From IMG/VR virus record IMGVR_UViG_3300047160_036266, positions 256,001 through 320,000 of that record: a DNA stretch of 64,000 bases; one strand, 5' to 3'. This document shows, in pieces, positions 363 to 51,800 of the stretch. A model generated the notes under the pieces. The model saw nothing but the letters and a program-made list of their open reading frames with translations. It was not told the origin of the DNA and ran no database searches. The DNA comes from a virus. Its lineage: Duplodnaviria; Caudoviricetes. The first letter of the stretch is position 1; each line of letters opens with the position of its first letter. The translations under genes were made by a program, and so were the position numbers.

Positions 363-2945
363 TCAATCTTCACCTATGCTGTAGTCGATGTCCTCTTCGT
401 CCTGCTCAGCCTCATAATCTTGAATCTCCAGATCAAATTTCCTAATGTCTTCGTCGTCCGGTTCCGCCAGCGGTGCCCCTTCGGCGGGATTCGGCCCTGG
501 TGCGCCACTCGGACCCGTTTCAGGCGGCGATTCCATCGCCACCCCACCGCCAGGCGGTGGAGCGCCGCCTCCTGGCGGCGGTGTAAGACCCATCGTGCCG
601 GGTCCACCCGGCCCAGGTGACGGTCCCAGCATCGGACTTGGGCCTCCCGGTTCCGTGCCCATTTCCTGGCCGGGCTGGGGAGTCTGCCCCGGTACGCCCA
701 CACCCAGCAGTTGTGGGTTCTGAGCCAAGACCTGCAACTTCAGGTCTTCGAGTTTCTGTATCTTCAGCCGGGCAAGCATTTCTTCGGCCTCTTCCGTGCT
801 ATATTTCATCCACTTCGTCTGGATGTCCCAATCCGCCATTAGCTGAGAGGATTTCAGGCTGCTCGCGTTGTTTATACGGTTCGTCGTGACTTCCGCCCGG
901 CTGAGTTCCCGCCAATCGCTCGGCGGGGTCATCTTTATGCGTAGGTCGTCGTATGACTCTTCGGGGAACCCCCGTAGTTGCAGGTGACGGTCGGCCATCT
1001 CCCACAAACCATCTTCCATGTGCGACTGCAACCGCTCGATCATGCGGGCGAACTTGATGTCCTGCGCACTGAGCGTGATGCGAGTTGCGTTGGGGTCTTC
1101 GTTATTGAAGTAATTCTTGGGAAAATTCAGGGCGGCGAACAACTTATTTCTGAAATAAACGGCGTCATCAATCTCACCAAGGTTCTGCGCCCCCGGCAAC
1201 GTGTCGATCTTGGTGTTAGAGTTGGGCCTGATCGGCAACCAATAGTCCTCATCCGCCGCCGGCGCGTGCCAGCGTTCTTCGACTATGGAGGAGGCACCGA
1301 ACTGGCTGCCCCGGCTGCTGGCTATCTTCTTCTTGCGGAACTGGTCCTTCATCCGCTCGATAAATGCCTCTGCCTTGAAGGGCGGCAACTGGCCGACATC
1401 AATATAGAACACCCGACGCTCCGGCGCACGGGTCAACCGATACACCACCATCGCGTCTTCCATCAACCGCAACTGGTGAGCCGGTCCACGGGCCGCTTCA
1501 ACCAGAGACACCCCGTAGGGGTAGAAGGTCTTGCGATCATCCCCGATGCGGATGTGGACAATCTGCTCTGGGGCAAACCGTATGGCGGTTGCCTGCATGA
1601 TTTCGGAGTCGGTCGCCTGGACCACCGGGGCGCGAATGAGGCTTTGGTAGTCGGGGCCTTCCTTGCTTTGCTGGAACTCCACCACCTTGCCCTTGGTCGT
1701 CTCGATGCGGTATATTGACTCTGGCGGCAGGCGGACTATTTTCATCACACCGTCCTTGGGCTGGTCCGGGTTGATGACTATTTCGTAGAACAAGTCGCCA
1801 AAGATGCACAGGTTCTTGAAGTCGCTCCAGGTACGGCGGTCCATGTTCAGCATCAGGCGGTGGAAAAATAGGAACTCAAGCTCCTCCTTGACATCCCGGT
1901 TCTTGCATTCGATTTTGAAGACGTGGTTATTCTCGTCCTTCTGGCAGTTGTGGAATATCACGGATTTTGAGCAAAAGTTCTGGTGGCCCTCTACGGACAA
2001 GTCGTATACGTCCATTGTCTGGTATTCTTGAATACCAATGACCCGGCGGCGGTCCTCCTTCTTCGCCAAATGCCGTATTTCTTTAAGGGAGAAACCTTCC
2101 TTTTGCAGACATAACTTGATGGTATTCCAGTCGTGGGGGACCGTCCGCTTGATGTCATTCATCGCCATGCCGGCGCTGGCAGCCCGGATGATCTTGTTCA
2201 ACCTTTCGTATCGTGCCTCCGGGTGGCCGCACCGCCATTGCTCCACGAACTGCCGCTCGTGCATCCAGCCCTGTGTGTGCGTGAAGATGCGTGGGAACTG
2301 GCTGGTCTTGAGCTTCGTGAAGTTTTGGTTGGCCTTGACCCGGTAGAAGGGCATCAACTCGTCACCAAACTTGAGGCCCCCGGCCATCGTCCATTCGCCC
2401 GAACGCAACAATACTCGATGGTCCGGGGTGGCGATGAAATGATCGCCATTATCCAGCACCACCTTCACAGTTGGGGCGGTTTTGGTCTTGCGAGGAGCGA
2501 AACCCCAGCCCAGGGTGTAGTCGCCCTTGGCAAAGTCCCAGCAATACAGTAGAAACTTCTCGTCGGGCTTGTTCTTGGCCAGCCACTCGATGGTCGGGAA
2601 TCCGAAGGGGGTAGCGATCTCTGTGTCGCCCGCCACGCACGCCTCGTCGGCAAAGACCGTCATCGCCATCTCAATCTCGGCCACGTTGCGGAGACGTTCG
2701 TACTCCTTGTACCGGGACATGCGGTTGCTGACGGTAGAAAGGTCGATGAAGTCCTGTGTCTCCCGGTAACGCACGAGCCGCTGCTCATTGCCGCCCCAGA
2801 AGGAACCGTCCGGCCCCATGCTGGGAATGGCGTCGGGCTGCGAGATGCCAGCGCCGGTCAAGTCCCTTACGTCGATCTTCCTCGCCAGAGGGTCTTTCGC
2901 AAAGGCGTAGGTGAATAGCTTGAAATAGTCAGCCCATATAGGCAT
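363..2945 (-). CDS. Portal protein (T4 gp20-like) interrupted by an intein, with a Pro/Gly-rich and acidic C-terminal tail
   Basis: gp20-like motifs GDLFYEIVIN, YGVSLVEAAR, QLRLMEDAMVVYRLTRAPERRVFYIDVGQLP, EDYWLP and IDTLPGAQNLGEIDDAVYFRNKLFAAL; SD GGAGG upstream. Confidence 0.93.
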   Translation of the reverse strand: MPIWADYFKLFTYAFAKDPLARKIDVRDLTGAGISQPDAIPSMGPDGSFWGGNEQRLVRYRETQDFIDLSTVSNRMSRYKEYERLRNVAEIEMAMTVFADEACVAGDTEIATPFGFPTIEWLAKNKPDEKFLLYCWDFAKGDYTLGWGFAPRKTKTAPTVKVVLDNGDHFIATPDHRVLLRSGEWTMAGGLKFGDELMPFYRVKANQNFTKLKTSQFPRIFTHTQGWMHERQFVEQWRCGHPEARYERLNKIIRAASAGMAMNDIKRTVPHDWNTIKLCLQKEGFSLKEIRHLAKKEDRRRVIGIQEYQTMDVYDLSVEGHQNFCSKSVIFHNCQKDENNHVFKIECKNRDVKEELEFLFFHRLMLNMDRRTWSDFKNLCIFGDLFYEIVINPDQPKDGVMKIVRLPPESIYRIETTKGKVVEFQQSKEGPDYQSLIRAPVVQATDSEIMQATAIRFAPEQIVHIRIGDDRKTFYPYGVSLVEAARGPAHQLRLMEDAMVVYRLTRAPERRVFYIDVGQLPPFKAEAFIERMKDQFRKKKIASSRGSQFGASSIVEERWHAPAADEDYWLPIRPNSNTKIDTLPGAQNLGEIDDAVYFRNKLFAALNFPKNYFNNEDPNATRITLSAQDIKFARMIERLQSHMEDGLWEMADRHLQLRGFPEESYDDLRIKMTPPSDWRELSRAEVTTNRINNASSLKSSQLMADWDIQTKWMKYSTEEAEEMLARLKIQKLEDLKLQVLAQNPQLLGVGVPGQTPQPGQEMGTEPGGPSPMLGPSPGPGGPGTMGLTPPPGGGAPPPGGGVAMESPPETGPSGAPGPNPAEGAPLAEPDDEDIRKFDLEIQDYEAEQDEEDIDYSIGED
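1947..2639 (-). mobile_element. Intein (231 aa) in the portal protein
   Basis: Block A CVAGDTEIAT after ADEA; block B FIATPDHRVL; block F VYDLSVEGHQNF; block G HN followed by a +1 Cys (VIFHN|CQKD). Confidence 0.92.
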
Positions 2946-16017: not shown

Positions 16018-16475
16018 CCATAGGCCAGGGTATCGAGGAGGACTTCCAGTTCCTTGATTTCCACAAAATGCAGGAGATTAAATATGCTCCGTCCCTTGCG
16101 GACCTTGGTGTACTGTTTGAATTGCATGTACCCGGACCCGCCATCCTTGATGTCGCGCAGCATTTTTGGGTTGGGAGCGGCACTTGGGATTTCCTCGCCC
16201 GTGGGCTTGATAGCAACCGCCACTTCGCCTTCCTGGGGCAAGTTCATCACATAACCGTCTTCGTAGTTGGTAATGGGCGTGGATACAGGTGCATTGCAAA
16301 TCCGGTATTTGCAGAATACTTCATTCGCCGGCTCTGTGGTCTTGCCCCGGTGGAACCAGACGGGCACGCTGACTCCCACCACTTCGACATCCCCGCCTTC
16401 GGCCAGCTTGTACCGCTCTTCCCTGGTGAGGAAAATATTGTGCAACACCGTGATGGTTATGTTGGGGTTTTTCAT
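16014..16475 (-). CDS. Hypothetical protein (153 aa)
   Basis: Start reassigned to the ATG at 16475 (MKNPNITI), an ATGA overlap with the nuclease stop. Confidence 0.7.
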   Translation of the reverse strand: MKNPNITITVLHNIFLTREERYKLAEGGDVEVVGVSVPVWFHRGKTTEPANEVFCKYRICNAPVSTPITNYEDGYVMNLPQEGEVAVAIKPTGEEIPSAAPNPKMLRDIKDGGSGYMQFKQYTKVRKGRSIFNLLHFVEIKELEVLLDTLAYG

Positions 16476-17236
16476 AGGGACGCCTCGTAGAACGGGCAAA
16501 TCTGGTTGTAGTCGCAGCGCTGACAATGGAAGCCGACGTTGCCCCACACCGTTTCGGGCTTGGTGTCCTCGATGTCGTGATAAACCTGTTTCATCTCCTG
16601 CGCCGCTGCGTCCAGGGACTCCTGCGTGAACTTGGTGGAGATGAGTTCGCACCCTTCGAGATAAAACAGGGCGGCGCGAATGTCCTCGGCCTTGGCACCG
16701 AACTCCTTCTGCACGACCATCGCATAGACCCGGAGTTGAAGGTCGTCCACGATGCTGGTGGCGGTTTTGCGCCACGGGCCTTTCTTGGTCGTCTTGTAGT
16801 CGATAATGAAAAACTTGCCCCGGCGCTCGATCAGACGGTCGATGAAGCCCGTGATGTAGTGCTTGGTAGGTGGCTCCAGGTCGTAGTTGAAGGGCCACTC
16901 CAGCCTGCCGTCAAAGCCGATCTTTTCGGTGAGCTTCTTGATGCAGCGTAAGTGCTTGGGGAACTTGGAGTTGTACTCGCCCTGCATTTTGGGGGCGTGG
17001 ACGCCTTCTTTGAGAAGAATCCGCCCTTTCATCACGTCGGCGGCGACATCGGTAATTTGCCGTTTGCCGCCGGCACGCACATATTCTTCGGCTACCTTAT
17101 GGACGATATTGCCATAGGTAAGGTAGAATGGCGTTACCCCCTCTGGGATCACCTTCAGGTGGTAGCGGTATTTGTACTGCTGCTGACAAGTCTGCCAGAC
17201 GTTGGCCCTGGAGACGGAAATATGCTCTATGTTCAT
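16472..17236 (-). CDS. PD-(D/E)XK RecB-family exonuclease with an Fe-S-staple-type Cys arrangement
   Basis: GNIVHKVAE, GFIDRL and IIDYKT motifs, Q/L.VYA; one N-terminal Cys plus C-terminal CxxC-x5-C (CQRCDYNQIC). Confidence 0.88.
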   Translation of the reverse strand: MNIEHISVSRANVWQTCQQQYKYRYHLKVIPEGVTPFYLTYGNIVHKVAEEYVRAGGKRQITDVAADVMKGRILLKEGVHAPKMQGEYNSKFPKHLRCIKKLTEKIGFDGRLEWPFNYDLEPPTKHYITGFIDRLIERRGKFFIIDYKTTKKGPWRKTATSIVDDLQLRVYAMVVQKEFGAKAEDIRAALFYLEGCELISTKFTQESLDAAAQEMKQVYHDIEDTKPETVWGNVGFHCQRCDYNQICPFYEASL

Positions 17237-17365: not shown

Positions 17366-18406
17366 ATGGCCGTCGATTTTCAGCGCTTTGTGGATTGGGC
17401 CGAAAGCCGCTTTGATGATGTGATCGTCAAGGGCGGGGAAGTGCGGCTTAACTCCATCTTCAGCGACGAGCCAGACTCCCACTTCCACCTATGGTGCAGC
17501 CCCTCCGGGGGCAAGAAGCACCGTGATAACGGCGTGTTCCACTGCTTCAAGACCGACCGCAAGGGCAGCCTTATCACCCTCGTCATGGAAGTGGACAAGT
17601 GCGACTATGACGAGGCCCTGGCGACCCTGCGGGGCGAAACGTCCTTGCGGGTGTTGGAAGAAAAACTGGAGGAGTATTTAACCCAGCAGGAGGCTGCACC
17701 CAAGGCTGAAACCAAACTGTTCCTGCCGCCGCACGCAGCGATTATCAGCGCGAACCCGAATGGCTGGTGGGAACGCAAGGCCAGGGAATATTTGAAAAAG
17801 CGAGCCATCCCGGCGGACGAGTATTATATTTGCACGGACGGGCAATATAAAGGCCGCATCATCATTCCCTACTACGACCGCACCGGGAAACTCATTTACT
17901 GGAATGCCCGTGCCACCCACCCCAAGGCCAGACTTCGCTACGTCGGGCCTCCCAAGGACGTGGGCGTGGGCAAGGAGGACGTGGTTTACATGGACCATTG
18001 GCCCCCGGAAGGGGCCACCGTCCATCTTTGTGAGGGTGAGTTCAATGCCAAGAGCCTAAGCCTGGCAGGATTGCATGGGGCTGCCTGCGGCGGCAAAAGC
18101 ATGAGCGCTAAGCAGGCGGTAATCCTCAAGGATTATGCAATCGTGATCTGCCTCGACCGGGATAAGCCAGGCTGGAAAGGTGCTGCCAGCATGAGTGAAA
18201 AGCTCAGTGCCATCTCGGTGCGGCTGGGATTGCAAGATCGCCTGCTGCTGGTCCGGCCTCCGATGGGTTATAAGGACTGGAATGAGATGCTGGTCAAGTT
18301 TGGACCGGAAATATTGGCGGCGTATGTCGCCCGCAGCGCTAAACCGCTGGAACAACATACGCCGTTAGGGAAGTCGAATCTGTTCTTCAACCTGCGCGAC
18401 GTGTGA
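17366..18406 (+). CDS. dnaG: DNA primase (DnaG-like, zinc-binding domain plus TOPRIM)
   Basis: FHCFKTDRKG zinc-binding region; RIIIPYYD...YWNAR; TOPRIM LCEGEFNA and CLDRD; KDWNE. Confidence 0.88.
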   Translation: MAVDFQRFVDWAESRFDDVIVKGGEVRLNSIFSDEPDSHFHLWCSPSGGKKHRDNGVFHCFKTDRKGSLITLVMEVDKCDYDEALATLRGETSLRVLEEKLEEYLTQQEAAPKAETKLFLPPHAAIISANPNGWWERKAREYLKKRAIPADEYYICTDGQYKGRIIIPYYDRTGKLIYWNARATHPKARLRYVGPPKDVGVGKEDVVYMDHWPPEGATVHLCEGEFNAKSLSLAGLHGAACGGKSMSAKQAVILKDYAIVICLDRDKPGWKGAASMSEKLSAISVRLGLQDRLLLVRPPMGYKDWNEMLVKFGPEILAAYVARSAKPLEQHTPLGKSNLFFNLRDV

Positions 18407-18877
18407 CTACACCATTCGGTAGCCCAGAGAGGCCAGAAAAGTTGTGGCCTGCTGGGCATTTAGCTGGCTGCCAACAGGATATTGTCTGGTAAAGTTTTGC
18501 AATGCCTGTTGTTGCTGCTGTGGCGTTACCTGTTGGTGCTGGCCAGGAGTAGTGCCGGCAGCCGGTGCAGCGGCAGGAGCAGGAGCAGGTGCGGCAGCCA
18601 CAGGTGCCCCGTTCGTTTCACCGAATAGGTTACGATCCACAAGCCATTCCTTGAACTTCTTCGGCTTGTCCTCGTGCTTATATTTTTCCTTCTTCTCCGG
18701 CTTCTTCTTGCTCTTGGAAGTGTCGCCAGGCTCCGGCTTATAATGAGGCTTGGCCTTCTTTTTGTTTTTCATGTACCAGGCCAGGGCGAACGGGTTGTCG
18801 ATGTCCTTGTGGCGCTTCATAGCCTTGGTGGTTCCAGACCAACCAGGCGGCGATACTTCGTCAAGTCTCTTGTCCAT
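18407..18877 (-). CDS. Hypothetical, possible prohead core/internal protein
   Basis: Lys-rich N-half (PPGWSGTTKAMK..DNPFALAW), internal FKEWL motif, Ala/Pro/Gln-rich C-half; SD AGGGGAG. Confidence 0.65.
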   Translation of the reverse strand: MDKRLDEVSPPGWSGTTKAMKRHKDIDNPFALAWYMKNKKKAKPHYKPEPGDTSKSKKKPEKKEKYKHEDKPKKFKEWLVDRNLFGETNGAPVAAAPAPAPAAAPAAGTTPGQHQQVTPQQQQQALQNFTRQYPVGSQLNAQQATTFLASLGYRMV

Positions 18878-18893
18878 TTTACTCCCCTAATGT

Positions 18894-19259
18894 ATGAACC
18901 TTACATACTTTGTCGGCAAAGCTTGTTCCGTATTTACGCACCCGGTCAACAGGAATTTTAACGAGAAACAGCTTCAGGACTATTTTGTTGGTCTGGTGGA
19001 ATCCGTTGATGCCAGGGGCGTTTGGACAACCCACCCCATCACGGGCTGCAAGAACTACTATCCGATGGAGAATATTATCGCCATCTGCGAGGAACAAGTT
19101 GTCCATGACCAGAAAATACTTGAGAAGTACAAGGAAGCCAAAAAGGAAGTCGAGGCACCGATAGCTACGCCAGGGGATACAACTTTCATCGACCATGAGA
19201 TGATGGTCCGGCTATCACAGCAGGCCAAGCAACTCAGTCGGAAGCCAGGCGCTTCTTGA
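18894..19259 (+). CDS. Hypothetical protein, possible Sm-like fold
   Basis: 121-aa ORF; YFVGKACSVFT...FVGLVESVDARGVWT pattern. Confidence 0.6.
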   Translation: MNLTYFVGKACSVFTHPVNRNFNEKQLQDYFVGLVESVDARGVWTTHPITGCKNYYPMENIIAICEEQVVHDQKILEKYKEAKKEVEAPIATPGDTTFIDHEMMVRLSQQAKQLSRKPGAS

Positions 19260-21408
19260 AATATTCGTGACGCTGGGATAAGGGCAGATGGGCGTACTCA
19301 GATCGCAATATTGGTTTGCCGCCTTCGCGCAGGAGCTTCCGATAGCGAGCTATCAACTCGATTGATTCGGGGAACTTATCTAATTCTGGCATGAGGCCAC
19401 CAAGGTCGGCGTCGGGGTCCGAGTCCTTGTCACGGGTGCGGCCCGCAAAGAGCAACCTCTTTACTTTCTCGATCTCGCCCGCCTTCAAATCTCGCTTTAA
19501 CTCTTCCATTTCCGCTGCGTTAATGCGTCCTTCCCCAGCAAGGGTGTCGATTTGGCTTACTAACTCCTTTGGGTCATCTTCCGGCTTTTTCTTCTTGCCT
19601 CTCGACGGCCTCCGCTGGAAATGTCCTTCGATCTTCCTTTGCACCGATTCCTCGGTGTCACCCTCGTGTTCGATGCGGCTCAAGTGCGGGGCATGTTCGG
19701 ACATATATTCATCGTAGATGTCCGGGTAGTAGCGCTTGATGATCTCTATGCGAGGATCGCCCTTGCGTAGTACCTTGGGCAGCACAACCCGTAATTTGCC
19801 AGCGTTATGGCCCCGGCCCTCCTTACCTGCGTTCCCCTTGCGATTGAGATGGTCTTTTTCATCCTGCGGTAGTGACATCCAGGGGTGCCAAACGGCATCC
19901 AGTATTTCCCTTTGCTCATCGGTTAGGGTGTGGAGATGCCGCTTGCGCAAGTCCGTCAATGTTTTTATAACATGCGGTCGGTTAGCATCACTGAGAAGTT
20001 CCTTATAACGCTCGCTTCGGCCAGGAGCCGCCGTATGCTCTGGTCCTTCCGGGACCGGACCTGGCACACCTTCGTCCTCATGCTCCTCCTCGGCCTCCGG
20101 TTCCTCTGGCTCAATCGGCGGTGCGGCAGTTGGCTTTTCTGGCGTACCCTCCAGAGAATAGGGTTCCCCCTCCTGCGTTGGGGCGTGAGGTATCCGATTG
20201 TAGAGGGCGGCGGGACTTAACATGCTGCCGGCAGGATCGCTGGCCTTTACCCCGAACTTAACCTTGCCGCCCTTGGTTTCTCCGATGGCATCCCAATGGG
20301 CAAAGGCAGCCTTGACCCAGGCCCATACCCGGCGCTTGTGATCGAGGTCCGATTCGTCTTTCCCTTGTGAGGGTATGTCACCTGGCCACGGTGGGACCGG
20401 CCCTTGGGCCTTGTCCTTCTTCTTTTTTCCCGGTTTCTTGACTGGTGGTTCCTCTTCTTCCGCTTCCGCTTCCGCTTCCGCTTCCGGTGAAAAGGACGCA
20501 GGTGGGGCGTGTAGTCCGGCGGCGGGCACTGGCGGCAGGTTTTGCGGCATACTGGCCCGTCCTGAAGGTTTTAGGGTTCCTTCTTCATCCTCTGCCCCGC
20601 CATGACGGCCCATTTCCTCATGGGAGGCTGGCGATAAACCATCGCTGCGCCGTGCAGGCACGTCCGGTTCTTCGTCTGGCTCTTCTACTGGCGGTTCGCC
20701 TTCGGGCGCTGGAGCCGATGGCCTTTCTGGGGGCGGTTCTTCTTCTGGCGGTCCTTCGTCTGGCGGTGGCTCCTCCTCTGGTAGCTGTTCGGCATCGGGC
20801 CGCTGCTGCGTTGCTGGCGTGGGGTCCATGTAGTTGGCACCAATATTGACTGCATTCTGCATGGACCGCTGGAATTCCCTCTTTATGTCCTGAATATAGC
20901 GCATGATAGCTCTGGTGGCGTCATCACGCCAGTTGTCCAAGGCCCGATCAATTTGCAGTACGCCCTGCCCGGCCACCGCTGCTTCGAGGAGGGTGCTGAG
21001 TTCAGTAACAGTGCGGTATTCGGCAATTGAAAGCACCCGTTCCCCGGTCCACTCCGGCACGGTTTCTCCCCAGGCACCCAGCCGGTTGCGATAGTAATAA
21101 GGGTTGCTCGTTGCATCAGCCCCGTGCCACAGGTTTTTCCACCAGTTGGCAATGCGCGTGCCGATGCCACGTTGCGCCGTAACCCCGCCTGGTCCTTTTA
21201 GCTGGTTACTCAGGTCTTTGACTAATTTTTGTATCTCTCTAGGTAGTTCTTGCTCAATGCGGGCAAATTCGGCGTCCATATTTTGAACGAGATTATGGAG
21301 CGTTTGCTGAATAAGCGGACCAGCACCCCTGGCCGGTGGTGGTTCAGCCTGGGGCGCTGCTTGGCGGGCCTCGTTGGTCTTCTTCAGATAGGTGGCAAAA
21401 TCACGCAT
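19234..21408 (-). CDS. Large Pro/Glu-rich hypothetical protein with a CTS-like N-terminus
   Basis: 724 aa starting MRDFATYLKKTNE; long disordered P/E segments; SD AGGAG and TATATA at 21429-21434. Confidence 0.8.
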   Translation of the reverse strand: MRDFATYLKKTNEARQAAPQAEPPPARGAGPLIQQTLHNLVQNMDAEFARIEQELPREIQKLVKDLSNQLKGPGGVTAQRGIGTRIANWWKNLWHGADATSNPYYYRNRLGAWGETVPEWTGERVLSIAEYRTVTELSTLLEAAVAGQGVLQIDRALDNWRDDATRAIMRYIQDIKREFQRSMQNAVNIGANYMDPTPATQQRPDAEQLPEEEPPPDEGPPEEEPPPERPSAPAPEGEPPVEEPDEEPDVPARRSDGLSPASHEEMGRHGGAEDEEGTLKPSGRASMPQNLPPVPAAGLHAPPASFSPEAEAEAEAEEEEPPVKKPGKKKKDKAQGPVPPWPGDIPSQGKDESDLDHKRRVWAWVKAAFAHWDAIGETKGGKVKFGVKASDPAGSMLSPAALYNRIPHAPTQEGEPYSLEGTPEKPTAAPPIEPEEPEAEEEHEDEGVPGPVPEGPEHTAAPGRSERYKELLSDANRPHVIKTLTDLRKRHLHTLTDEQREILDAVWHPWMSLPQDEKDHLNRKGNAGKEGRGHNAGKLRVVLPKVLRKGDPRIEIIKRYYPDIYDEYMSEHAPHLSRIEHEGDTEESVQRKIEGHFQRRPSRGKKKKPEDDPKELVSQIDTLAGEGRINAAEMEELKRDLKAGEIEKVKRLLFAGRTRDKDSDPDADLGGLMPELDKFPESIELIARYRKLLREGGKPILRSEYAHLPLSQRHEYFKKRLASD

Positions 21409-21445
21409 TTGACTCCTAAAGCTAAAGCTATATATTTGCTTCAGG

Positions 21446-21913
21446 CTATTTTGTTCGGGACGTGTCGGTGATAAACTCTCCGATTTTCTTCAGCGACATG
21501 AGGCAGGAGTCGAACTTGTGGAAGTCGCTGGAGAGGTATTCCAGTGTCAATTCGTCAAATTGTTTGGACTCGTCCTCGCTGGTGGCTTCAAAATATACGG
21601 CCTTGCCCTTGCGACCCACTACGCGAAATTTGTGCATGAGAAGGAAGGCGGCAGCGCCCAGGTCGGTAACGAACTTCTGGGCACGAGGTTCGCACACCGA
21701 TTCATCTATTTTTTTGAGTGACATCAGGCAGGAGTCAAAGCGGTGGAACTCACTGGACAGGTATTCCAGTTTCAAGTTATCGAACTCCGGTCCTTGCTGG
21801 TCATCGACCTCGAAGAATATTGACTTCCCCTGCCTGCCGATGACCTTGTGTTCGTGCATCAGGATATATGCTGCGGCCCCAAGGTCGGAGACACCTTTCT
21901 GCAACTTTTTCAT
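21446..21913 (-). CDS. Protein made of two tandem copies of a ~75-aa domain (DUF5659-like, tentative)
   Basis: Both halves share DLGAAA(Y/F)xLMH ... EYLSS(E/D)FH(R/K)FDSCLMSLKKI. Confidence 0.8.
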   Translation of the reverse strand: MKKLQKGVSDLGAAAYILMHEHKVIGRQGKSIFFEVDDQQGPEFDNLKLEYLSSEFHRFDSCLMSLKKIDESVCEPRAQKFVTDLGAAAFLLMHKFRVVGRKGKAVYFEATSEDESKQFDELTLEYLSSDFHKFDSCLMSLKKIGEFITDTSRTK

Positions 21914-21928
21914 CTACACCTTTCTTTC

Positions 21929-21965
21929 AATGCCCGGCAGTATGAGAGTGATACTGCCGGGCATT
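21929..21965. repeat. Perfect 15-bp inverted repeat with a 7-nt loop
   Basis: AATGCCCGGCAGTAT-GAGAGTG-ATACTGCCGGGCATT, intergenic. Confidence 0.9.
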
Positions 21966-21976
21966 TGTGCTTCATA

Positions 21977-22573
21977 TCAGAATAACTTTTTGATCTTCTT
22001 GGCGAGGATGCTTGCGATCACCTGATCGGCGGTCTTATCGCTGACCAGTTTCTTCAAGGCACAGAAGACCTCCTTAACGTCCTTGTGCGATATATTCGTA
22101 GTCGCACCGTTGACCTGTAGGTTGCCGCCTGCCTCCCACTTGATGTCACACTTGGGGCATTTCGCCGCCAGGAGGTTAGTCAAACGGTCGGGGTTCGCCG
22201 TCTGGAATTCGGGGAAGACTTCCCCGATCTGGCACCACAACTGGTCGATGTTGTTCAGGAGCGGACAGCCGTTATCGACCATTCGATCCTTCTTGGCCCT
22301 GGCAGCGTAAATTGAATCGGCGCTGCCCATGCCCGCCTCGTCCATGTCCCTCTTGACGATCTCTTGTATTTCCTCCCTGGTGTAATTGTGGCCTTCGTGC
22401 CACTGCTGGAAGGGCTTGAGCTTTGTTTTCTCGCCCAGGATATGCTCCCCAGGTTCCTTCCGTCCCATCATTTCTTCTTGCTCGGCAAAGAGGTTCCTGG
22501 CGAAGCAATTGATCGCGTCGTCAATGAACGATGATTTGGTTTGTTCTTTGTCGTTGTTTATAGACTCATCCAT
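21977..22573 (-). CDS. Hypothetical protein
   Basis: 198-aa ORF with SD AAAGGA, directly downstream of the actin-like gene. Confidence 0.75.
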   Translation of the reverse strand: MDESINNDKEQTKSSFIDDAINCFARNLFAEQEEMMGRKEPGEHILGEKTKLKPFQQWHEGHNYTREEIQEIVKRDMDEAGMGSADSIYAARAKKDRMVDNGCPLLNNIDQLWCQIGEVFPEFQTANPDRLTNLLAAKCPKCDIKWEAGGNLQVNGATTNISHKDVKEVFCALKKLVSDKTADQVIASILAKKIKKLF

Positions 22574-22583
22574 TTTGTTCCTT

Positions 22584-23594
22584 TCACTTAACTGATGCTT
22601 CGGCAGCTATCAAGCAGCCACGGGACACGCTGAAAAGGGGATCGGCTGGCCGGATGATCTCCCCAATAGGAATGGGGAGCTTGGCCTGGGTTACGACATC
22701 CTTGAACAGTTGCCCGAACCCGTGAGGGCAAGACACGCCGCCGGCAATAACGATGTCTACCGGGGCGTCCGCCCGCACCTGTTTCGATTCCTTCGTCAGT
22801 CCTTCCTTTATGCCCCTGACCGTGTTCTCAATCATGATCCGGTACTGCGTCTGAATCGCCCGCTCAACAAGGCTGTTGGGGGCTTTGGCCAGGTCTACCT
22901 TCATTTTTTCTTTGTTGATGAAGGTTGGACTGTCGCCGGTGGCTTTGGCAGCCATCTTGTCAATCCAGTCGCCACTATGTACCAACGCGAATTTGAACAC
23001 GGGGTTGCCGAACATGGAGAAACACAGATTCACCATGCCGGCACCAAATGAAATCCCGATGCCTGTATAAGCCTTCTTGCCTAGTTCGGCGTATACCAAT
23101 GCCAGGCCCTCGTTGATCGGATGCGGGTCTACCGAAAAGCCGTTCTCGGCCTTGAAAGCCTTGAATATCGACTCCAGTATTTTCTGGTGGTAAATCGCGT
23201 CGGTTTCTTCGTTGATGGCGTTGGCGGGCACGCTGAAAAAGAGAACTTCCTTTTCTCGTTTTACACCTTCCAGCAGGCTATGGACCATGATGCTGAGAAT
23301 CTGGAAGGCGTCCCGTTCCTTGGGGTTGACACAACCCTGGTGCATGGGCCGTTTGAGGTCGAGGCTCGTCAACGTGTAAGCCATGTTGACTGCCGCTTCG
23401 CCCAGGGCGTAGCCCACGTCGGCGCGCTCTATGAGAGGCACGCCTGCGGTCTTCATCATGGTAAAGACGAAACGATCCTCCAGGGGTATTTCCAAGAAGG
23501 CGTTGACCTCACGCTTATGCACGAAGTTGCCCTTCTCATCCCTGTGGCAACAGACTAGGTTGTACGTTCCGGCATCGAATCCTACTGGCATCAT
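22584..23594 (-). CDS. Actin-fold ATPase (MreB/FtsA/ParM superfamily)
   Basis: Phosphate-1 VGFDAGTYN, connect-1 INEGLA, phosphate-2 GISFGAGMVN, adenosine IVIAGGVS. Confidence 0.85.
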   Translation of the reverse strand: MMPVGFDAGTYNLVCCHRDEKGNFVHKREVNAFLEIPLEDRFVFTMMKTAGVPLIERADVGYALGEAAVNMAYTLTSLDLKRPMHQGCVNPKERDAFQILSIMVHSLLEGVKREKEVLFFSVPANAINEETDAIYHQKILESIFKAFKAENGFSVDPHPINEGLALVYAELGKKAYTGIGISFGAGMVNLCFSMFGNPVFKFALVHSGDWIDKMAAKATGDSPTFINKEKMKVDLAKAPNSLVERAIQTQYRIMIENTVRGIKEGLTKESKQVRADAPVDIVIAGGVSCPHGFGQLFKDVVTQAKLPIPIGEIIRPADPLFSVSRGCLIAAEASVK

Positions 23595-23809
23595 TCCTCC
23601 TGGTACTTACCGAACTTGATCTTGGACGAGGTAAAATCGGGTATCGCCCATTCTACCTTATCCTCTGGAGTTTCGGGGGAAACGGTCCTTGCCGCTACCT
23701 TCACTCCATCGGCGTTGAGGTTGATGTTCAGTTCCAAGACTATGGAAACGGTACACTCACCTTGCTGCGTCACAACCCGGACTTCATGGGGCTTGATAAG
23801 CTGTGGCAT
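23591..23809 (-). CDS. Small hypothetical protein translationally coupled to the actin-like gene
   Basis: 72 aa; ATGA overlap at 23591-23594; TAGATA on the minus strand 6 nt upstream of its start. Confidence 0.75.
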   Translation of the reverse strand: MPQLIKPHEVRVVTQQGECTVSIVLELNINLNADGVKVAARTVSPETPEDKVEWAIPDFTSSKIKFGKYQEE

Positions 23810-23839
23810 ATCAGCTATCTAGCCCGTAATTTCCCCGTT

Positions 23840-24802
23840 TTAACTGAGTGTGATAGGCCATTTTTGGAACATTCTTTCAAGACCGTTGGCCAGGATGTCC
23901 GGCGTCAGTTCGGTTAGACACGGCTTGAGTACGTCCTTGCACTTGGGGCATTGCGGCCACGCAAAGCAGGGACCACAATCCCAATTGCCATCGTCCCGGT
24001 GCTTCTGGACCAGCACGAAATCGTAATATTTGCCGTAAACCTTGCCGTCAATAAAGGTGAAAATACCCGTCAGCGGCTTCTTCAAACCGCCGGCGCAATG
24101 GAAGGTGGACGTATCCACGCTTACCACATAGTCGGCACAGTCAATAACGGCCATCCACTGCTTGTGACCTATATTCCAGATGGTCGAGAAGGGCTTGAGA
24201 TCGTAGAGCGGACTGTTGTGGAGGCCAACAACGAAGCAGCCTTTTTGGTGGAGGTATTTGGCAACCATCATCATTTGCTGCTTGCTCAAGTTCTTCCCAG
24301 CTTGGGCGGAAACGGGTGAGAAGACCACGGTTGGCCCCTTATGCTTGCCTTTAAGCTGCCTGATTTTGTCAATCGCCCAGCGCTTTGCTTCCTGGTCGAT
24401 GTGCAGGTGCATGTTGTGTTTGGTAAGAATGACCCCGCAATGGCTGGCCCAGATGTCGCTCCGGTGTTTGTCGGCAAAGGGGGCAACCTGAGCCTCGTAG
24501 CGGCCACAGGCCGTAGTGGTGTTGTAACTAATCAGGTAGTCGTGCAGTCTCACCGTTCGGCAGTTTACTACCTCGTCCACAAAGGGGTGGTTCTCGGAGG
24601 CGTGAATATAATCCGGGGGCACCGCCCAGACGATCTTGCAACCTGGAAAAACCCGTTTGAAGTCCTCAAACATCATGCGGTGCATCAGGATGTCTCCCAG
24701 CCCGCCGCACTCTCGAACAATCAACACGGTGTTCCGTTTGTTATAGAAATCGCGTAGGCCCACGGGCGAGGGCGGTTTGGGGTGACGAATCAGCTTGACC
24801 AT
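23840..24802 (-). CDS. Glycosyltransferase family 9 (heptosyltransferase-like, GT-B)
   Basis: GGLGDILM...FPGCKIVWAV; HPFVDEV; ADYVVSVDTSTFHCAGGLKKPLTGIF. Confidence 0.88.
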   Translation of the reverse strand: MVKLIRHPKPPSPVGLRDFYNKRNTVLIVRECGGLGDILMHRMMFEDFKRVFPGCKIVWAVPPDYIHASENHPFVDEVVNCRTVRLHDYLISYNTTTACGRYEAQVAPFADKHRSDIWASHCGVILTKHNMHLHIDQEAKRWAIDKIRQLKGKHKGPTVVFSPVSAQAGKNLSKQQMMMVAKYLHQKGCFVVGLHNSPLYDLKPFSTIWNIGHKQWMAVIDCADYVVSVDTSTFHCAGGLKKPLTGIFTFIDGKVYGKYYDFVLVQKHRDDGNWDCGPCFAWPQCPKCKDVLKPCLTELTPDILANGLERMFQKWPITLS

Positions 24803-24807
24803 GCTAT

Positions 24808-24840
24808 AAAAGAGAAGCAGCCCGGAAATATCCGGGCTGC
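24808..24840 (-). terminator. Rho-independent terminator
   Basis: 10-bp stem GCAGCCCGGA/TCCGGGCTGC with a 4-nt loop, followed on the minus strand by TTCTCTTTT. Confidence 0.7.
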
Positions 24841-24868
24841 CGGTAGCAAGTTCTGCATGAAGAACTCG

Positions 24869-25486
24869 TTAGCTGTTGCACATGGAGGTCACGGAGGCGA
24901 GTACCGACACCGATACGGTGGTGGCACCGGAAGTGCTGTTGTCGAACTCCAGCTTGCTGACCGTCAAATCGCCAGCGTTGAAGACCTGAGTTACCAGGCC
25001 ACCTAACGTGAATACCGCATTGGTATTGCCGTTGAGGCGAACCTTGACGCCGTTCGCGCTGTTGTTGGTCAACTGGACGAACGAGGCCGGGTTGCCATAC
25101 GTTCCAACGAAGTCGATGACGTTGGCCGGGGTGCTGTAGCTCGTGCCGCCGACAACATTCAGGTTTTGGGCAACCGGGAAGTTGTTTTCCGGGGCGAAGT
25201 CAGAGTAAACGCTACCGTCATCCGTTACCACATTGATGAAAGCCTGGTCCAGAGGAACCTGCGGATAGGCAAACCGCTTCCAATAGTTGCAGTCCGTGAA
25301 GGTCTGGCCGTCACGGAGCTTGCGCCAGGTCCGGTTGGGTCCGGTGACATAAATCGTGCGCTGAATCGACGGGTTCATCTGCACGCCCAACTGATCGACG
25401 CTCGATGGCACTATTGCCTGCGTGGTCGGGTTAATGTCCATATAACCCTGGTAGGGGTTGTTCAAAGCCACTTGAAATACGCTCAT
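24869..25486 (-). CDS. Probable virion structural protein
   Basis: 205 aa, Asn/Val/Thr-rich beta composition; SD AAGGAG. Confidence 0.65.
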   Translation of the reverse strand: MSVFQVALNNPYQGYMDINPTTQAIVPSSVDQLGVQMNPSIQRTIYVTGPNRTWRKLRDGQTFTDCNYWKRFAYPQVPLDQAFINVVTDDGSVYSDFAPENNFPVAQNLNVVGGTSYSTPANVIDFVGTYGNPASFVQLTNNSANGVKVRLNGNTNAVFTLGGLVTQVFNAGDLTVSKLEFDNSTSGATTVSVSVLASVTSMCNS

Positions 25487-25530
25487 TGTTCTCCTTGAGT
25501 GTGATTCCCTGTCCTGGTCTTCGGGTGTAT

Positions 25531-26145
25531 CTATGCAGGAAGTTCCAAAACTTCCGCCCTTTCAAACATATTTTGGTACAATTTGGTCCCTAGTCCGGTT
25601 GGCACCAGGGCTGTTTGGATACCCCTCGCCGCCGCAGCGAACAGAAACTCGTTCTCCACGCCGATGACCCAAGCCGCTCCCTGAAAATTATTGCCAACCT
25701 CGACTTCCAGGCCCTCGTCCCTGGCCAGATGGCGGCAGCGGTCGATCTGTTGTGCAGTCAATGATTTGGTTGGGATGACCCCTTCGGGGCTAATGAGGCA
25801 ATAGTCGCCTGGGGGCGGCTCCGGGACACTAATGGAGAGTGGGATTTGCGACTCTTCCATAAGGACTTCGACGGGATGGGATTGCAGGTCGCAGGTGAGG
25901 TTGCGGATGTAGGCGAAGTTCAACTCGTTTTCGCGCAGTTGGCTGTAGGTTAGAACATTGGGATGGCCGTCGAGCAGGTGAAAGACTTCATCCATGCACG
26001 CTATATAAACCTGAATGCCCGGCAACTCTTTCTCGATGTTGGGACGGAGCAGCAATAGTTGAACGAGATATTCGTTTGACCTGCCGAAATAACCAATGCA
26101 GTAACGGTCTTTGATCTTCGCATAATGCGGTAGGACTACAGCCAT
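25531..26145 (-). CDS. Divergent GT9/GT-B-like protein
   Basis: CLISPEG..PTKSL and AAWVIGVENEFLFAAAARGIQTALV parallel the GT9 C-terminal motifs. Start reassigned to the ATG at 26145 with SD GGAG. Confidence 0.5.
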   Translation of the reverse strand: MAVVLPHYAKIKDRYCIGYFGRSNEYLVQLLLLRPNIEKELPGIQVYIACMDEVFHLLDGHPNVLTYSQLRENELNFAYIRNLTCDLQSHPVEVLMEESQIPLSISVPEPPPGDYCLISPEGVIPTKSLTAQQIDRCRHLARDEGLEVEVGNNFQGAAWVIGVENEFLFAAAARGIQTALVPTGLGTKLYQNMFERAEVLELPA

Positions 26146-48824: not shown

Positions 48825-51800
48825 TTAGGAGTTGGCGAAGTTATTGGGCAGTACGCCTAAGTTGGCGCTCTGGACCGCCTGACCCATCGGAACGTCAGGG
48901 AAGCGTGGTGGACGACCTGGAATGGTGCGATTCTGCGTGCGCCGTGGCTCGCCACCCATGCCGGTTACTGGCGCTGGCTTCGGCTTGAAGTATTCAACCA
49001 GCTTGGCCAGCAACTCCTTCTGCTCCTGCTCCACCGCAAGTGTCTGCGCTGTAAGTTTCGTCAATTCGGCCATTTCGGCAAGCGGACCCGTTGCTGCCGC
49101 CGGGGCCTGATCGGTAGCATAGCGCTGCTGCATTGCCGTGTGCAGGTCGGTCATGGACTGAGCCACGGCGACTTGCGTTGCCGGCTGCTCGGTGGCTGCC
49201 TCAAGTCGCACGCCGGTTGCTCCACCCAACGTCTGAATAAGACGGTTGACGGCCCCCATCGTTTCCACGTCATGAACGTAGATGCTACCCCGCTGCAAAC
49301 CCTGGTTGGCCAGGTCCGTCATGCCCTGGTTCGCCTGTGCCTGGGCTTGTTGATTCTGCTGCTGTGCTTGCTGTTGCTGCTGCTGTTGTTGAGTCTGCCT
49401 ATCCCGCCACTGATTAAAGCTAGTTGTCAGGGGGCCGGTAGCAGCCCGAACACTGTCGCCCACAGTCTGGGAAATACCAGTGATACGTCCAGTCAGATTT
49501 GTGGTGGAATCCGCCACTGCCTTGGAGGTTATCTTTGCCGATCCCGTAACGGCCCTATCGACTCCCGTAACATTGGCTTGGGTACTCTGTTGGGAGGAGG
49601 TAGTTATGGTCTGTTCCGAGAAGCGGTTCTGGGTCTTTTGGGTGTAGACCATAGTGCTTATCAACTCGCGCAGGGCCTCTTCAACCCCAACATCCTGGGT
49701 TTGCTGAATCTCATCGGGACCGCCTGGGGCAGCCCCCGGTGCCCGTGGACCGGCATTGGCCCGGACTAATGCCGCCCCCATCGCTTTATCCATTCCGGCC
49801 ATGCCTCCGGCGGCTTTAGGCGGTGCTGCGGCGGGTGTAACGCCGCCGCCGGGGGCTGCACCCGCTCCTCCCGGCCCTAATGCGGCGGGATTGACGAAGC
49901 TGGCCGTTGCATTACCCCCTGCCATATAATTGGCCAATTGACCGGCATCCAGGGGTGGCATTTTACTCAATGTCGTTGCCACATCGCTGATCTGCCCGAA
50001 ATTGATCTTTGTAAGGCCCGAAACGTCCACGTCCACGTCTGCCAGACCCGCCAAAGTGCCGCTGAGGGTGGCAATAACCGTGTCCATCTCCCCCAAAACA
50101 TCGTTGAGAACTTCAAGGGAGTCGATCACCCCCTCAAGTTCTTCTGTGTCGGCAAAGTTCTCCTTGATGGGGTCGATTATGCCTGTCCGTATTGCCTCTG
50201 CCGCCCCCTTGAAGAAGTTGGCGAACTTGTTGGTCGAGTCCGCAAGGTCAATATCCCAATCCGGGCCGGTGTTTAGCTTGTTCATTTGGGTGGTAACAGC
50301 ATCAACAACCTCGTTCACCTTGGGGAGAATACGGGATACGGCGTCGATTTCCTTAACGACCTCTTCAAGCTTCCTCGAATGCGGGAAATACCTCCAGATG
50401 GGGTCGATTATACCAATGCTGATACTGAGGGCGAGGCTTCTGAAGAATATAGCGAATCTAAAGGCATCCATCTGCTTCTTGGACTGGTCTTCCCAGGTCG
50501 GGAACTCTCTGCCGAACTTGTTGACCTCTTCCATCATCTTGTCGATGGTTTTCCGTACTTCCGGTATCAATTTCTGGACTATTTCTAGTCTCTTTAGCAG
50601 GTCAGCGAGTTCCGATGACGGCGGGAACCACACCTGGACCGGCTGGATCATGCCCTCGCTGATGCCCCTGGCAATATCCGTGAAGTAGGCGGCGAAGTCC
50701 CGGAACTTCCAGTTCATCTTGACGCTCCTCCACCATATGCCGAAGAAGCTCTGGCCATAGTCCTTGATTTCATTCGTTATGTCTTCGCAAACCTTCCTGA
50801 CCGCCGGGAGGAACTTCGGCACCATTTCGAGGCGAGCGATCAACTCTTGGAATACCTTGGCCGGCGGGAACCACTGGCGCACCGGATCAATCATGCCCGC
50901 CTTCAGGTTCCAGGCTATATTTCGGAAGAAGGTGCCGAATGCAAACAAATCCCAGGCCGTATTCAACATCTGAGCGGCAACGCCGATTGTGCCGCCAAGC
51001 CTCTTCATTTCATTGCTCAAGGCGTCGATCATCGCTCCGACCTTCGGCAGCATGTTCCTTACCCCGTCCAAACGCCCGTTGACTTCCACGAAGAAGGCGC
51101 TCTCTGGGAAATATTTGCGAATGGGTTCCAGAATGCCTTTGCCCAAAGCAACGGCTATGGTCCTGAAGAACTCGGAGAAGATCGTAACCTGGGCGGCAAT
51201 GACGCCCTGCATTCTCCACCACGGTGCCTTGGAGAACGTGTCCATCTCCTTGGCCAAGTCCTCGATAAACTTGGGCAGTTTCTTGACCAAATCAACCATG
51301 CCCTGAAGCTGGGCCTGCGCCTCCTGAACTTCCTGTGGCTTCGGGAAGGTAGTCTTGATCGGTATAAAGATGCCGTCACCCAGAGCGCGTGATATGCCGC
51401 CAAACCATTCGCCAAATTTCTTTACGGCATCGCCCATCGTTTTTACATTTGGCTCCCTGGGCGGGTCGTTGAACCACTTAATGCTGTTGGCCAAATCTAC
51501 GATGAACTTCGGCAACAGGTTGATAAGCCGCACCGCACCCGCCAGGCTCATGGCCGCAATCGACAAGTCGCGTGGGTCGCCAATGTCATAGATGATCGGA
51601 TCAACAATGCCGTGGCCGATAAAGTTGAACACCCCCTTGAAGAAGTCCTGGTAATTATCCGTGCTGTTCTCCAACTGTGTGAGGACGTTGCCGGCCAGGT
51701 CATCGCCCGCCTGCATCAGCGGGACCAGTCCATATTGAATGCCGTAGATTACCGGCGGGATGCTCTTGATAAGAGGCACCAATGCCTGCATGGACTCAGA

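Follow-up and report, generated by a model that had tools for sequence, protein, structure and literature searches.

A gene for an actin-like ATPase of the volactin family was identified, among small genes on the minus strand, in a 64,000-nucleotide stretch of phage DNA (hereafter the window) that corresponds to bases 256001-320000 of the 343-kb IMG/VR virus record IMGVR_UViG_3300047160_036266, a record estimated to be 69% complete. The gene belongs to the core set of a widespread clade of huge phages whose portal and terminase genes are of the T4 type, and we regard it as reasonably likely that the phage-borne actin polymerises in the infected cell together with two co-inherited small proteins. 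The window encodes a T4-type portal, a large terminase and baseplate genes, and its DNA is found in soil-metagenome DNA runs, no RNA run being listed for it. Together with the 343-kb virus record this points to a huge uncultured phage, in line with the phage origin assumed in an earlier note that was made from the letters of the same DNA. All features are listed in Table 1 in the numbering of the window.

The actin-like protein, the family of which the earlier note had not recognised, was matched by the Pfam family Volactin (PF25216) with 223.4 bits against a cut-off of 35 and along the whole profile (positions 1-321 of 321). A six-frame search of the record with PF25216 gave the same result, and among the control genomes only Haloferax volcanii scored above the cut-off. 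When the protein was scanned against Pfam at expect (E) values up to 1, no family besides PF25216 was returned, neither MreB_Mbl (PF06723) nor ParM/StbA nor the Hsp70 and sugar-kinase families, and a sequence search of the Protein Data Bank (PDB) gave no match at E values up to 1. An AlphaFold model computed from an alignment of 47 homologues reached a predicted local distance difference test (pLDDT) value of 93.5 and displayed an actin fold, which is not the GTPase fold of tubulin/FtsZ and so does not place the protein with PhuZ. Nearly all of its 50 best PDB neighbours in a Foldseek search were filament actins (MamK, MreB/Mbl, BeeR, eukaryotic actin and actin-related proteins). The structure search of the viral library BFVD returned no close actin relative from a cultured virus, the nearest entries being Hsp70-like or actin-like models with a template modelling (TM) score of about 0.6 and an identity of at most 17%, for example Gp506 of Bacillus phage G. 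The predicted structure supports the protein as a genuine member of the actin superfamily of the filament-forming kind.

The nucleotide motifs that the earlier note had ascribed to an actin fold are all present, one of them in a departing form. Phosphate-1 reads D7-x-G9-T10, connect-1 N-E162-G, adenosine A-G285-G286 and connect-2 D-P-L...R-G-C, while phosphate-2, the fifth of these nucleotide-binding and hinge motifs, reads S182-F-G-A-G and has serine where MreB and actin have aspartate, as judged from an hhalign alignment with E. coli MreB. This alignment carried a probability of 95% and brought the RPM-x-G, connect-1 glutamate, phosphate-2, adenosine and connect-2 motifs into register; the homology it indicates is at the level of the superfamily only. 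Ser182 is invariant in 47 of the 47 aligned family members and is thus a family trait and not a sign of decay. Weak PF06723 matches were seen in 11 of these 47 members. The protein itself shares 14-18% identity with MamK, MreB and BeeR and differs from them in lacking an MreB_Mbl match, in the serine of phosphate-2 and in its neighbours, which are phage genes and include none of the magnetosome or elongasome type.

A word-indexed search yielded 1345 homologues of the actin, the best 120 of which are all at least 69% identical to it and lie on contigs of up to 673 kb, and IMG/VR holds 61 actin loci on viral contigs of up to 430 kb. The GenBank huge phage LR756511.1 (595 kb) has a copy that is 66% identical, with both partner genes alongside. 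An exhaustive search of 50% representatives gave 901 clusters, and every one sampled belonged to PF25216. The phylogeny suggested in the earlier note was carried out in part: a FastTree analysis of 177 sequences covered representatives of the family, with E. coli MreB as the sole outgroup and root. The partner-bearing phage actins formed one clade within the volactin family with 100% Shimodaira-Hasegawa-like support, and the branches in this clade were much shorter than those in the rest of the family.

Identity to four large relatives was 65-66, 68-69, 66-67 and 55% for the actin against 63, 58, 53 and 45% for the large terminase, and the actin is accordingly the more conserved of the two in these relatives. 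Inteins with canonical C...HN/C ends were detected in or next to the phosphate-2 loop in 12 of 150 volactin-family representatives (P0127, P0133, P0138, P0140, P0142, P0152, P0155, P0164, P0171, P0235, P0251 and P0255) and likewise in the actin genes of the viral loci L063 (1942-4062) and L064 (6001-8130). At least two insertion points are used, one after S-F183 and one a few residues later after G-A-G-M, and the three intein-bearing representatives that were scanned against Pfam contained LAGLIDADG endonuclease domains. Inteins typically reside at indispensable, conserved sites. The terminase comparison, the short branches and the inteins together indicate that the actin gene is functional and strongly constrained.

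Conservation extends to the genes on either side of the actin, a feature that the bare letters of one sequence could not reveal. Across 63 related loci, in which homologues were counted by tblastn, a homologue of the 72-residue protein was present in 59, and in almost every one of these it was encoded immediately before the actin. The first ATG of the actin and the stop codon of the 72-aa open reading frame (ORF) overlap in the 4 nt ATGA. Another ATG in the same frame comes immediately afterwards (TGATG), and AGGAGG lies just upstream of the actin start at the junction of the two ORFs. Judged from this arrangement the two ORFs form a case of classical translational coupling, as had been claimed before. 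The 72-aa protein is composed of a short conserved N-terminal region that is beta-like, a variable, disordered linker rich in acidic residues and lysine and, at the C-terminus, the conserved peptide W-A-I-P-D-F-x(2-7)-K-[IVL]-x-F-G-K. In an alignment of 32 sequences M1, F59, F66 and G67 were invariant and I-P-D-F almost so. The family has no Pfam or PHROG match, and a Rosetta-stone test found no fused forms of it among proteins of 152-2000 aa, which is weak evidence.

Multimer prediction with the flanking proteins had been proposed in the earlier note. For the actin with the 72-aa protein, predicted from alignments built for this analysis, the ipSAE score had a median of 0.45 (runs of 0.00, 0.45 and 0.53) against 0.02 for the best control, a weak support that was not counted as evidence. 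Among 80 solved complexes 58 reached the ipSAE mark, as did 2 of 110 mismatched pairs, and those that met it at 0.60 or under comprised only 7 of the 80 solved complexes yet both of the passing mismatches. Agreement of contacts between runs was at least 18%, the pLDDT of the partner went down to 31 and no interface was returned. Separately, a gene upstream of a 41%-identical volactin in phage context (the gene is at L073:4728-4982, plus strand) encodes a protein of 84 aa that has a transmembrane helix in its N-terminal part. Its end, K-P-A-K-F-G-I-D-D, recalls the K-x-x-F-G-K end of the 72-aa family, of which the hidden Markov model (HMM) gives no match to it.

The second partner is the tandem-domain protein, the family of which was found downstream of the actin in 59 of the 63 loci. 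Of the 59 loci that have both genes, 39 have it immediately after the actin. Among relatives the protein occurs with a single domain (~72 aa) or with two in tandem (~150 aa), and the gene in the window has retained an internal DNA repeat with a spacing of 225 nt and 79% identity. The family alignment has a mean column identity of 59%. An AlphaFold2 model (pLDDT 90.8) consists of two beta-alpha-beta-beta-alpha-alpha units and has no significant match in the PDB, but it aligns with a DUF5659 cluster of the ESM Atlas at a TM score of 0.70 over 67 aa with a root-mean-square deviation of 2.2. Pfam DUF5659 (PF18903) matched 3 of 17 homologues weakly (best E 3.2e-5) and the protein itself not at all. 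The model suggests a DUF5659-like fold; a literature search yielded no mention of DUF5659. Sub-threshold Pfam LidA_Long_CC matches were also recorded for 13 of the 17 homologues (best E 1.2e-6), though the model is alpha/beta and not a coiled coil. The 724-aa protein encoded next has no Pfam match. It contains a conserved N-terminal domain of ~170 aa (residues ~50-220), Pro/Glu-rich low-complexity linkers and a basic C-terminus, and iterated HMM searches detected such an N-terminal domain in 22 of 44 distinct loci, encoded there by the gene that comes after the tandem-domain one.

The 198-aa ORF, the palindrome and the tandem-domain gene were all found to follow the actin on the minus strand, as reported earlier. 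The 198-aa gene is, however, an accessory gene in a variable slot and not a core partner. Its homologues occur in only 3 of the 63 loci, the closest relatives L002-L004, and its product has no significant Pfam match. A gap of at least 200 nt between the actin and tandem-domain genes was observed in 20 of 59 loci, of which 17 have an accessory ORF and one has no ORF, the other two being due to inteins within the actin gene. About 12 of the 17 accessory ORFs end in a K-K-L-x-x-L-F(I) tail. The basic amphipathic tail of the 198-aa protein has a hydrophobic moment of 0.59 over the last 11 aa, which is not exceptional within the protein, and the values in homologues are weaker (0.27-0.36); the tail is at most a candidate membrane-targeting helix.

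No perfect inverted repeat in the window is longer than the palindrome behind the accessory gene, which has no U-tract after it. Folded as RNA the palindrome has a free energy of -29.3 kcal/mol (z -4.6), and none of 200 shuffles folded as well. In most of the checked relatives that possess an accessory gene, this position is taken by a hairpin just as strong but unrelated in sequence, and in those without an accessory gene there is no hairpin. As the structure is conserved and the sequence is not, an element acting at the RNA level is indicated and not a DNA binding site, and a centromere or operator was rejected. The palindrome is best read as an RNA-level terminator, possibly a partial one, or stabiliser that separates two expression units.

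Volactin genes outside the partner-bearing clade were found in other phages and in bacteria. A second huge phage, LR745208.1, has a copy at 33% identity, and a scan of a genome collection with a degenerate DNA pattern for phosphate-2 returned four contigs of metagenome-assembled genomes (MAGs), while a scan with protein P0130 gave no match. One of these, the Desulfobacterales contig JAGMBW010000071.1, has a volactin-family gene (L068:1273-2355, minus strand, 320 bits) that is flanked by dnaK and by a radical-SAM gene of the B12-binding type, an apparently cellular context that gives the 'archaeal' volactin family bacterial chromosomal members. The partner genes were not found beside the copies of LR745208.1 (33%), of L073 and L074 (about 40%) or of the bacterial MAGs examined. 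At locus L075, where the copy has 36% identity and branches at the base of the clade, the downstream partner is present and the upstream partner absent. Also outside the phage clade, P0248 (1160 aa) is a fusion of volactin with Wzz, GNVR and ParA/MinD-like domains of the BY-kinase type, and P0131, P0147, P0157, P0163 and P0179 have large extra regions, among them N-terminal extensions of 200-580 aa with no Pfam match.

With regard to polymerisation, partner binding and cargo we infer the following scheme. The phage volactin would bind ATP and polymerise into dynamic filaments in the infected cell, like archaeal volactin, MamK, MreB and BeeR. The 72-aa protein would dock on the actin via its C-terminal peptide and act as an adaptor, nucleator or regulator. 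The DUF5659-like protein, often followed by a large disordered protein, would link the filaments to a cargo or site, which may be replicating phage DNA, procapsids or membrane, with the net effect that a very large infection factory is organised in space. More tentatively, and with a probability that we place somewhat below even, a huge phage clade of soil, freshwater and marine habitats would have an actin cytoskeleton of its own as a counterpart of the PhuZ spindle, in which a volactin filament and two new actin-binding families, a docking-peptide protein of 70-85 aa and a DUF5659-like protein, position phage DNA, capsids or the factory. The spindle or capsid trafficking in place of PhuZ that the earlier note had envisaged would follow by analogy.

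Several points weigh against a polymerising actin with dedicated partners. Filament assembly in vivo is known for the volactin of H. volcanii only (PMC10869688). The serine in phosphate-2 replaces a canonical aspartate, a replacement that is family-wide and may therefore be tolerated. The partners do not show any known actin-binding fold, a search of the surroundings revealed no centromere or other element for recognising cargo, and distant volactin genes occur without both partners, which are thus not obligatory for the fold. The lack of tubulin (PF00091) matches in the 343-kb record and in five relatives, of which three have a completeness of 97% or more, counts in favour of the scheme, yet this negative result depends on one Pfam model and on records that are partly incomplete; absence from the six records would be compatible with, and is not proof of, an actin system that stands in for PhuZ.

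An alternative function for the filaments is type II partition or DNA transport like that of ParMRC or AlpAC, in which episomal phage genomes are pushed or positioned during pseudolysogeny or a carrier state and one of the small proteins is the DNA-binding adaptor. The order small protein, actin, small protein does resemble parM-parR and alpA-alpC (PMC4446434), the discoverers of volactin likened its dynamics to ParM (PMC10869688), salactin, a related actin of haloarchaea, helps in the partitioning of DNA and IMG/VR labels the record 'provirus'. Iterons and parC-like repeats are nonetheless missing from 18500-25600, in and around the unit, where the repeats present are the coding duplication of the tandem-domain gene and low-complexity coding repeats, and the palindrome is conserved as a structure only. 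ParB_N and tyrosine integrase were not found in the 343-kb record and CbiA/ParA gave a sub-threshold match only. The lack of centromere-like repeats, ParB and integrase weighs against a role in episome partition, as does the lack of a Pfam ParM/StbA match for the actin at E values up to 1. Furthermore, the tandem-domain model and the Pfam results of the partners point to no known DNA-binding fold such as ribbon-helix-helix. The type II layout of ParM, ParR and parC to which the earlier note had referred was accordingly not borne out, and we consider partition decidedly unlikely.

Remodelling of the host is also unlikely, if a little less so. The actin and its partners would here alter the shape, size, wall growth or division of the host to accommodate very large virions, and the I-P-x-F peptide of the 72-aa protein might mimic the C-terminal peptide of FtsZ and bind division proteins of the host. 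In E. coli the C-terminus of FtsZ reads D-I-P-A-F-L-R after a disordered linker, and the almost invariant I-P-D-F of the 72-aa family is likewise preceded by a disordered linker; the likeness comprises three residues and is a lead only. Volactin itself is a determinant of cell shape (PMC10869688), the phage actin is homologous to MreB (95% in hhalign) and the 198-aa accessory protein ends in a basic amphipathic tail (0.59). Against this, the amphipathic moment of the tail is unexceptional and weaker in homologues (0.27-0.36), genes like mreC, mreD or rodZ are not among the neighbours and the actin is without an N-terminal amphipathic helix. There is finally a slim chance that the protein is a non-polymerising ATPase with an actin fold, similar to a chaperone, kinase or assembly factor, whose place in the volactin family is incidental. 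The non-canonical phosphate-2, with serine for aspartate, would fit such an enzyme and the nearest BFVD models are Hsp70 homologues, at a TM score of only about 0.6, whereas the single 336-aa core, the lack of a Pfam match to Hsp70 or sugar kinases and the filament actins among the PDB neighbours give no support to the ATPase of Hsp70 or sugar-kinase type that had been named earlier as the refuting case.

The surroundings of the actin unit add the following. The gene directly upstream, like a heptosyltransferase of glycosyltransferase family 9 (GT9), is separated from the 72-aa ORF by 30 nt that are free of hairpins and lies upstream of the actin in 38 of the 63 related loci. It is thus syntenic, yet probably part of a neighbouring fibre-glycosylation block, and the terminator-like hairpin beyond it is the likely 5' boundary of the transcription unit. 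None of the six unit proteins, the GT9-like one included, had a match in PHROGs. The TAGATA box placed by the earlier note at the start of the operon is present but was rejected as a promoter or operator. Its 10 occurrences in the window compare with an expectation of 11.0 from shuffled sequences, and its remaining copies lie away from gene starts, so that it carries no weight. A sigma-70 scan gave no minus-strand match upstream of the actin unit. On the low-coordinate side of the unit are genes for a primase and a nuclease. A Toprim_2 gene is near the actin module in the 673-kb contig (locus L002) too, which indicates that the neighbourhood on the primase and nuclease side is conserved as well.

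Table 1. Features of the window, in order of position.
Feature	Position	Strand	Remarks
Portal gene	363-2945	-	T4-type; Intein_splicing match at residues 154-333, ahead of the Portal_T4 domain
PD-(D/E)XK/Cas4-like nuclease	16472-17236	-	low-coordinate side of the actin unit
DnaG-like primase	17366-18406	+	Toprim_2 and CHC2 zinc finger; low-coordinate side of the actin unit
724-aa low-complexity gene (P0005)	19234-21408	-	downstream of the tandem-domain gene
Tandem-domain gene, 155 aa (P0004)	21446-21913	-	two repeats of ~75 aa
Hairpin (palindrome)	21929-21965	-	perfect 15-bp stem, 7-nt loop, within the 63-nt spacer after the 198-aa gene
198-aa accessory ORF (P0003)	21977-22573	-	begins 10 nt past the actin stop
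Actin-like ATPase, 336 aa (P0001)	22584-23594	-	volactin family
72-aa ORF (P0002)	23591-23809	-	most upstream gene of the three-ORF unit
TAGATA hexamer	23816-23821	-	6 nt upstream of the ATG of the 72-aa ORF
Heptosyltransferase-like (GT9) gene, 320 aa	23840-24802	-	directly upstream of the unit; Pfam Glyco_transf_9, E 6e-7
Terminator-like hairpin	24816-24841	-	11 pairs (8 G-C) and a T-rich tail; upstream of the GT9-like gene
4154-aa single ORF	48825-61289	-	just beyond the baseplate block

To our knowledge, phage cytoskeletons are known mainly as tubulins, namely PhuZ of the nucleus-forming jumbo phages and TubZ-like proteins, and cases of actin such as AlpC are isolated. Known phage actins are AlpC and the plasmid-prophage Alps; viractins are the actins of giant eukaryotic viruses. 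No account of a phage actin of the volactin type was found in the literature searched, which included PMC10869688, the founding survey of huge phages and reviews of jumbo phages. In Haloferax volcanii, volactin itself (VolA, HVO_2015) assembles in vivo into dynamic filaments with a ParM-like instability (Schiller et al. 2024, PMC10869688). The phage protein is of the same Pfam family and has the same single-domain actin fold of about 330 aa, MreB-like yet distinct. It differs in being encoded by a huge bacteriophage and not by an archaeal chromosome, in its separate and tightly conserved clade and in its two small partner genes, and nothing in a phage obviously corresponds to the part that VolA plays in the rod-to-disk transition.

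In prophage CGP3 of Corynebacterium glutamicum the small adaptor AlpA is co-transcribed with the actin AlpC and links phage DNA to it; AlpC is needed for efficient replication and positioning of viral DNA (Donovan et al. 2015, PMC4446434), and the promoter of AlpA contains a consensus site to which AlpA itself binds (PMC4446434). The likeness to the present case, a phage actin with a small adjacent gene, is one of gene layout only. The actin here is of the volactin type, no repeats of the AlpA type were seen and, whereas CGP3 is a small integrated prophage, the genome here exceeds 340 kb and no integrase was found in it. ParMRC of plasmid R1 likewise pairs the gene of an actin-like ATPase with a small gene that comes right after it, and dynamic instability has been proposed for the family. 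The phage unit is set apart by an extra upstream partner, by the lack of parC-like repeats and of a ParM/StbA match and by a downstream DUF5659-like protein with an alpha/beta model that is not a recognised DNA-binding fold. With PhuZ of the Chimalliviridae the unit would share a phage-encoded cytomotive filament, here a predicted one, in very large phages, and no tubulin was found in the six records searched; the protein is of the actin and not the tubulin superfamily.

On the sequence evidence the phage volactin module is real and strongly conserved, and it is probably a new variant of phage-encoded cytoskeleton. It makes a volactin-type actin a core gene in a large, environmentally common clade of phages with genomes of about 300-670 kb. 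If the protein polymerises, intracellular organisation based on actin as well as on tubulin would have evolved in bacterial viruses. The module would then supply two new candidate families of actin-binding proteins and, with its three genes, a small system in which to study the workings of the volactin branch of the actins, a branch that also has bacterial members.

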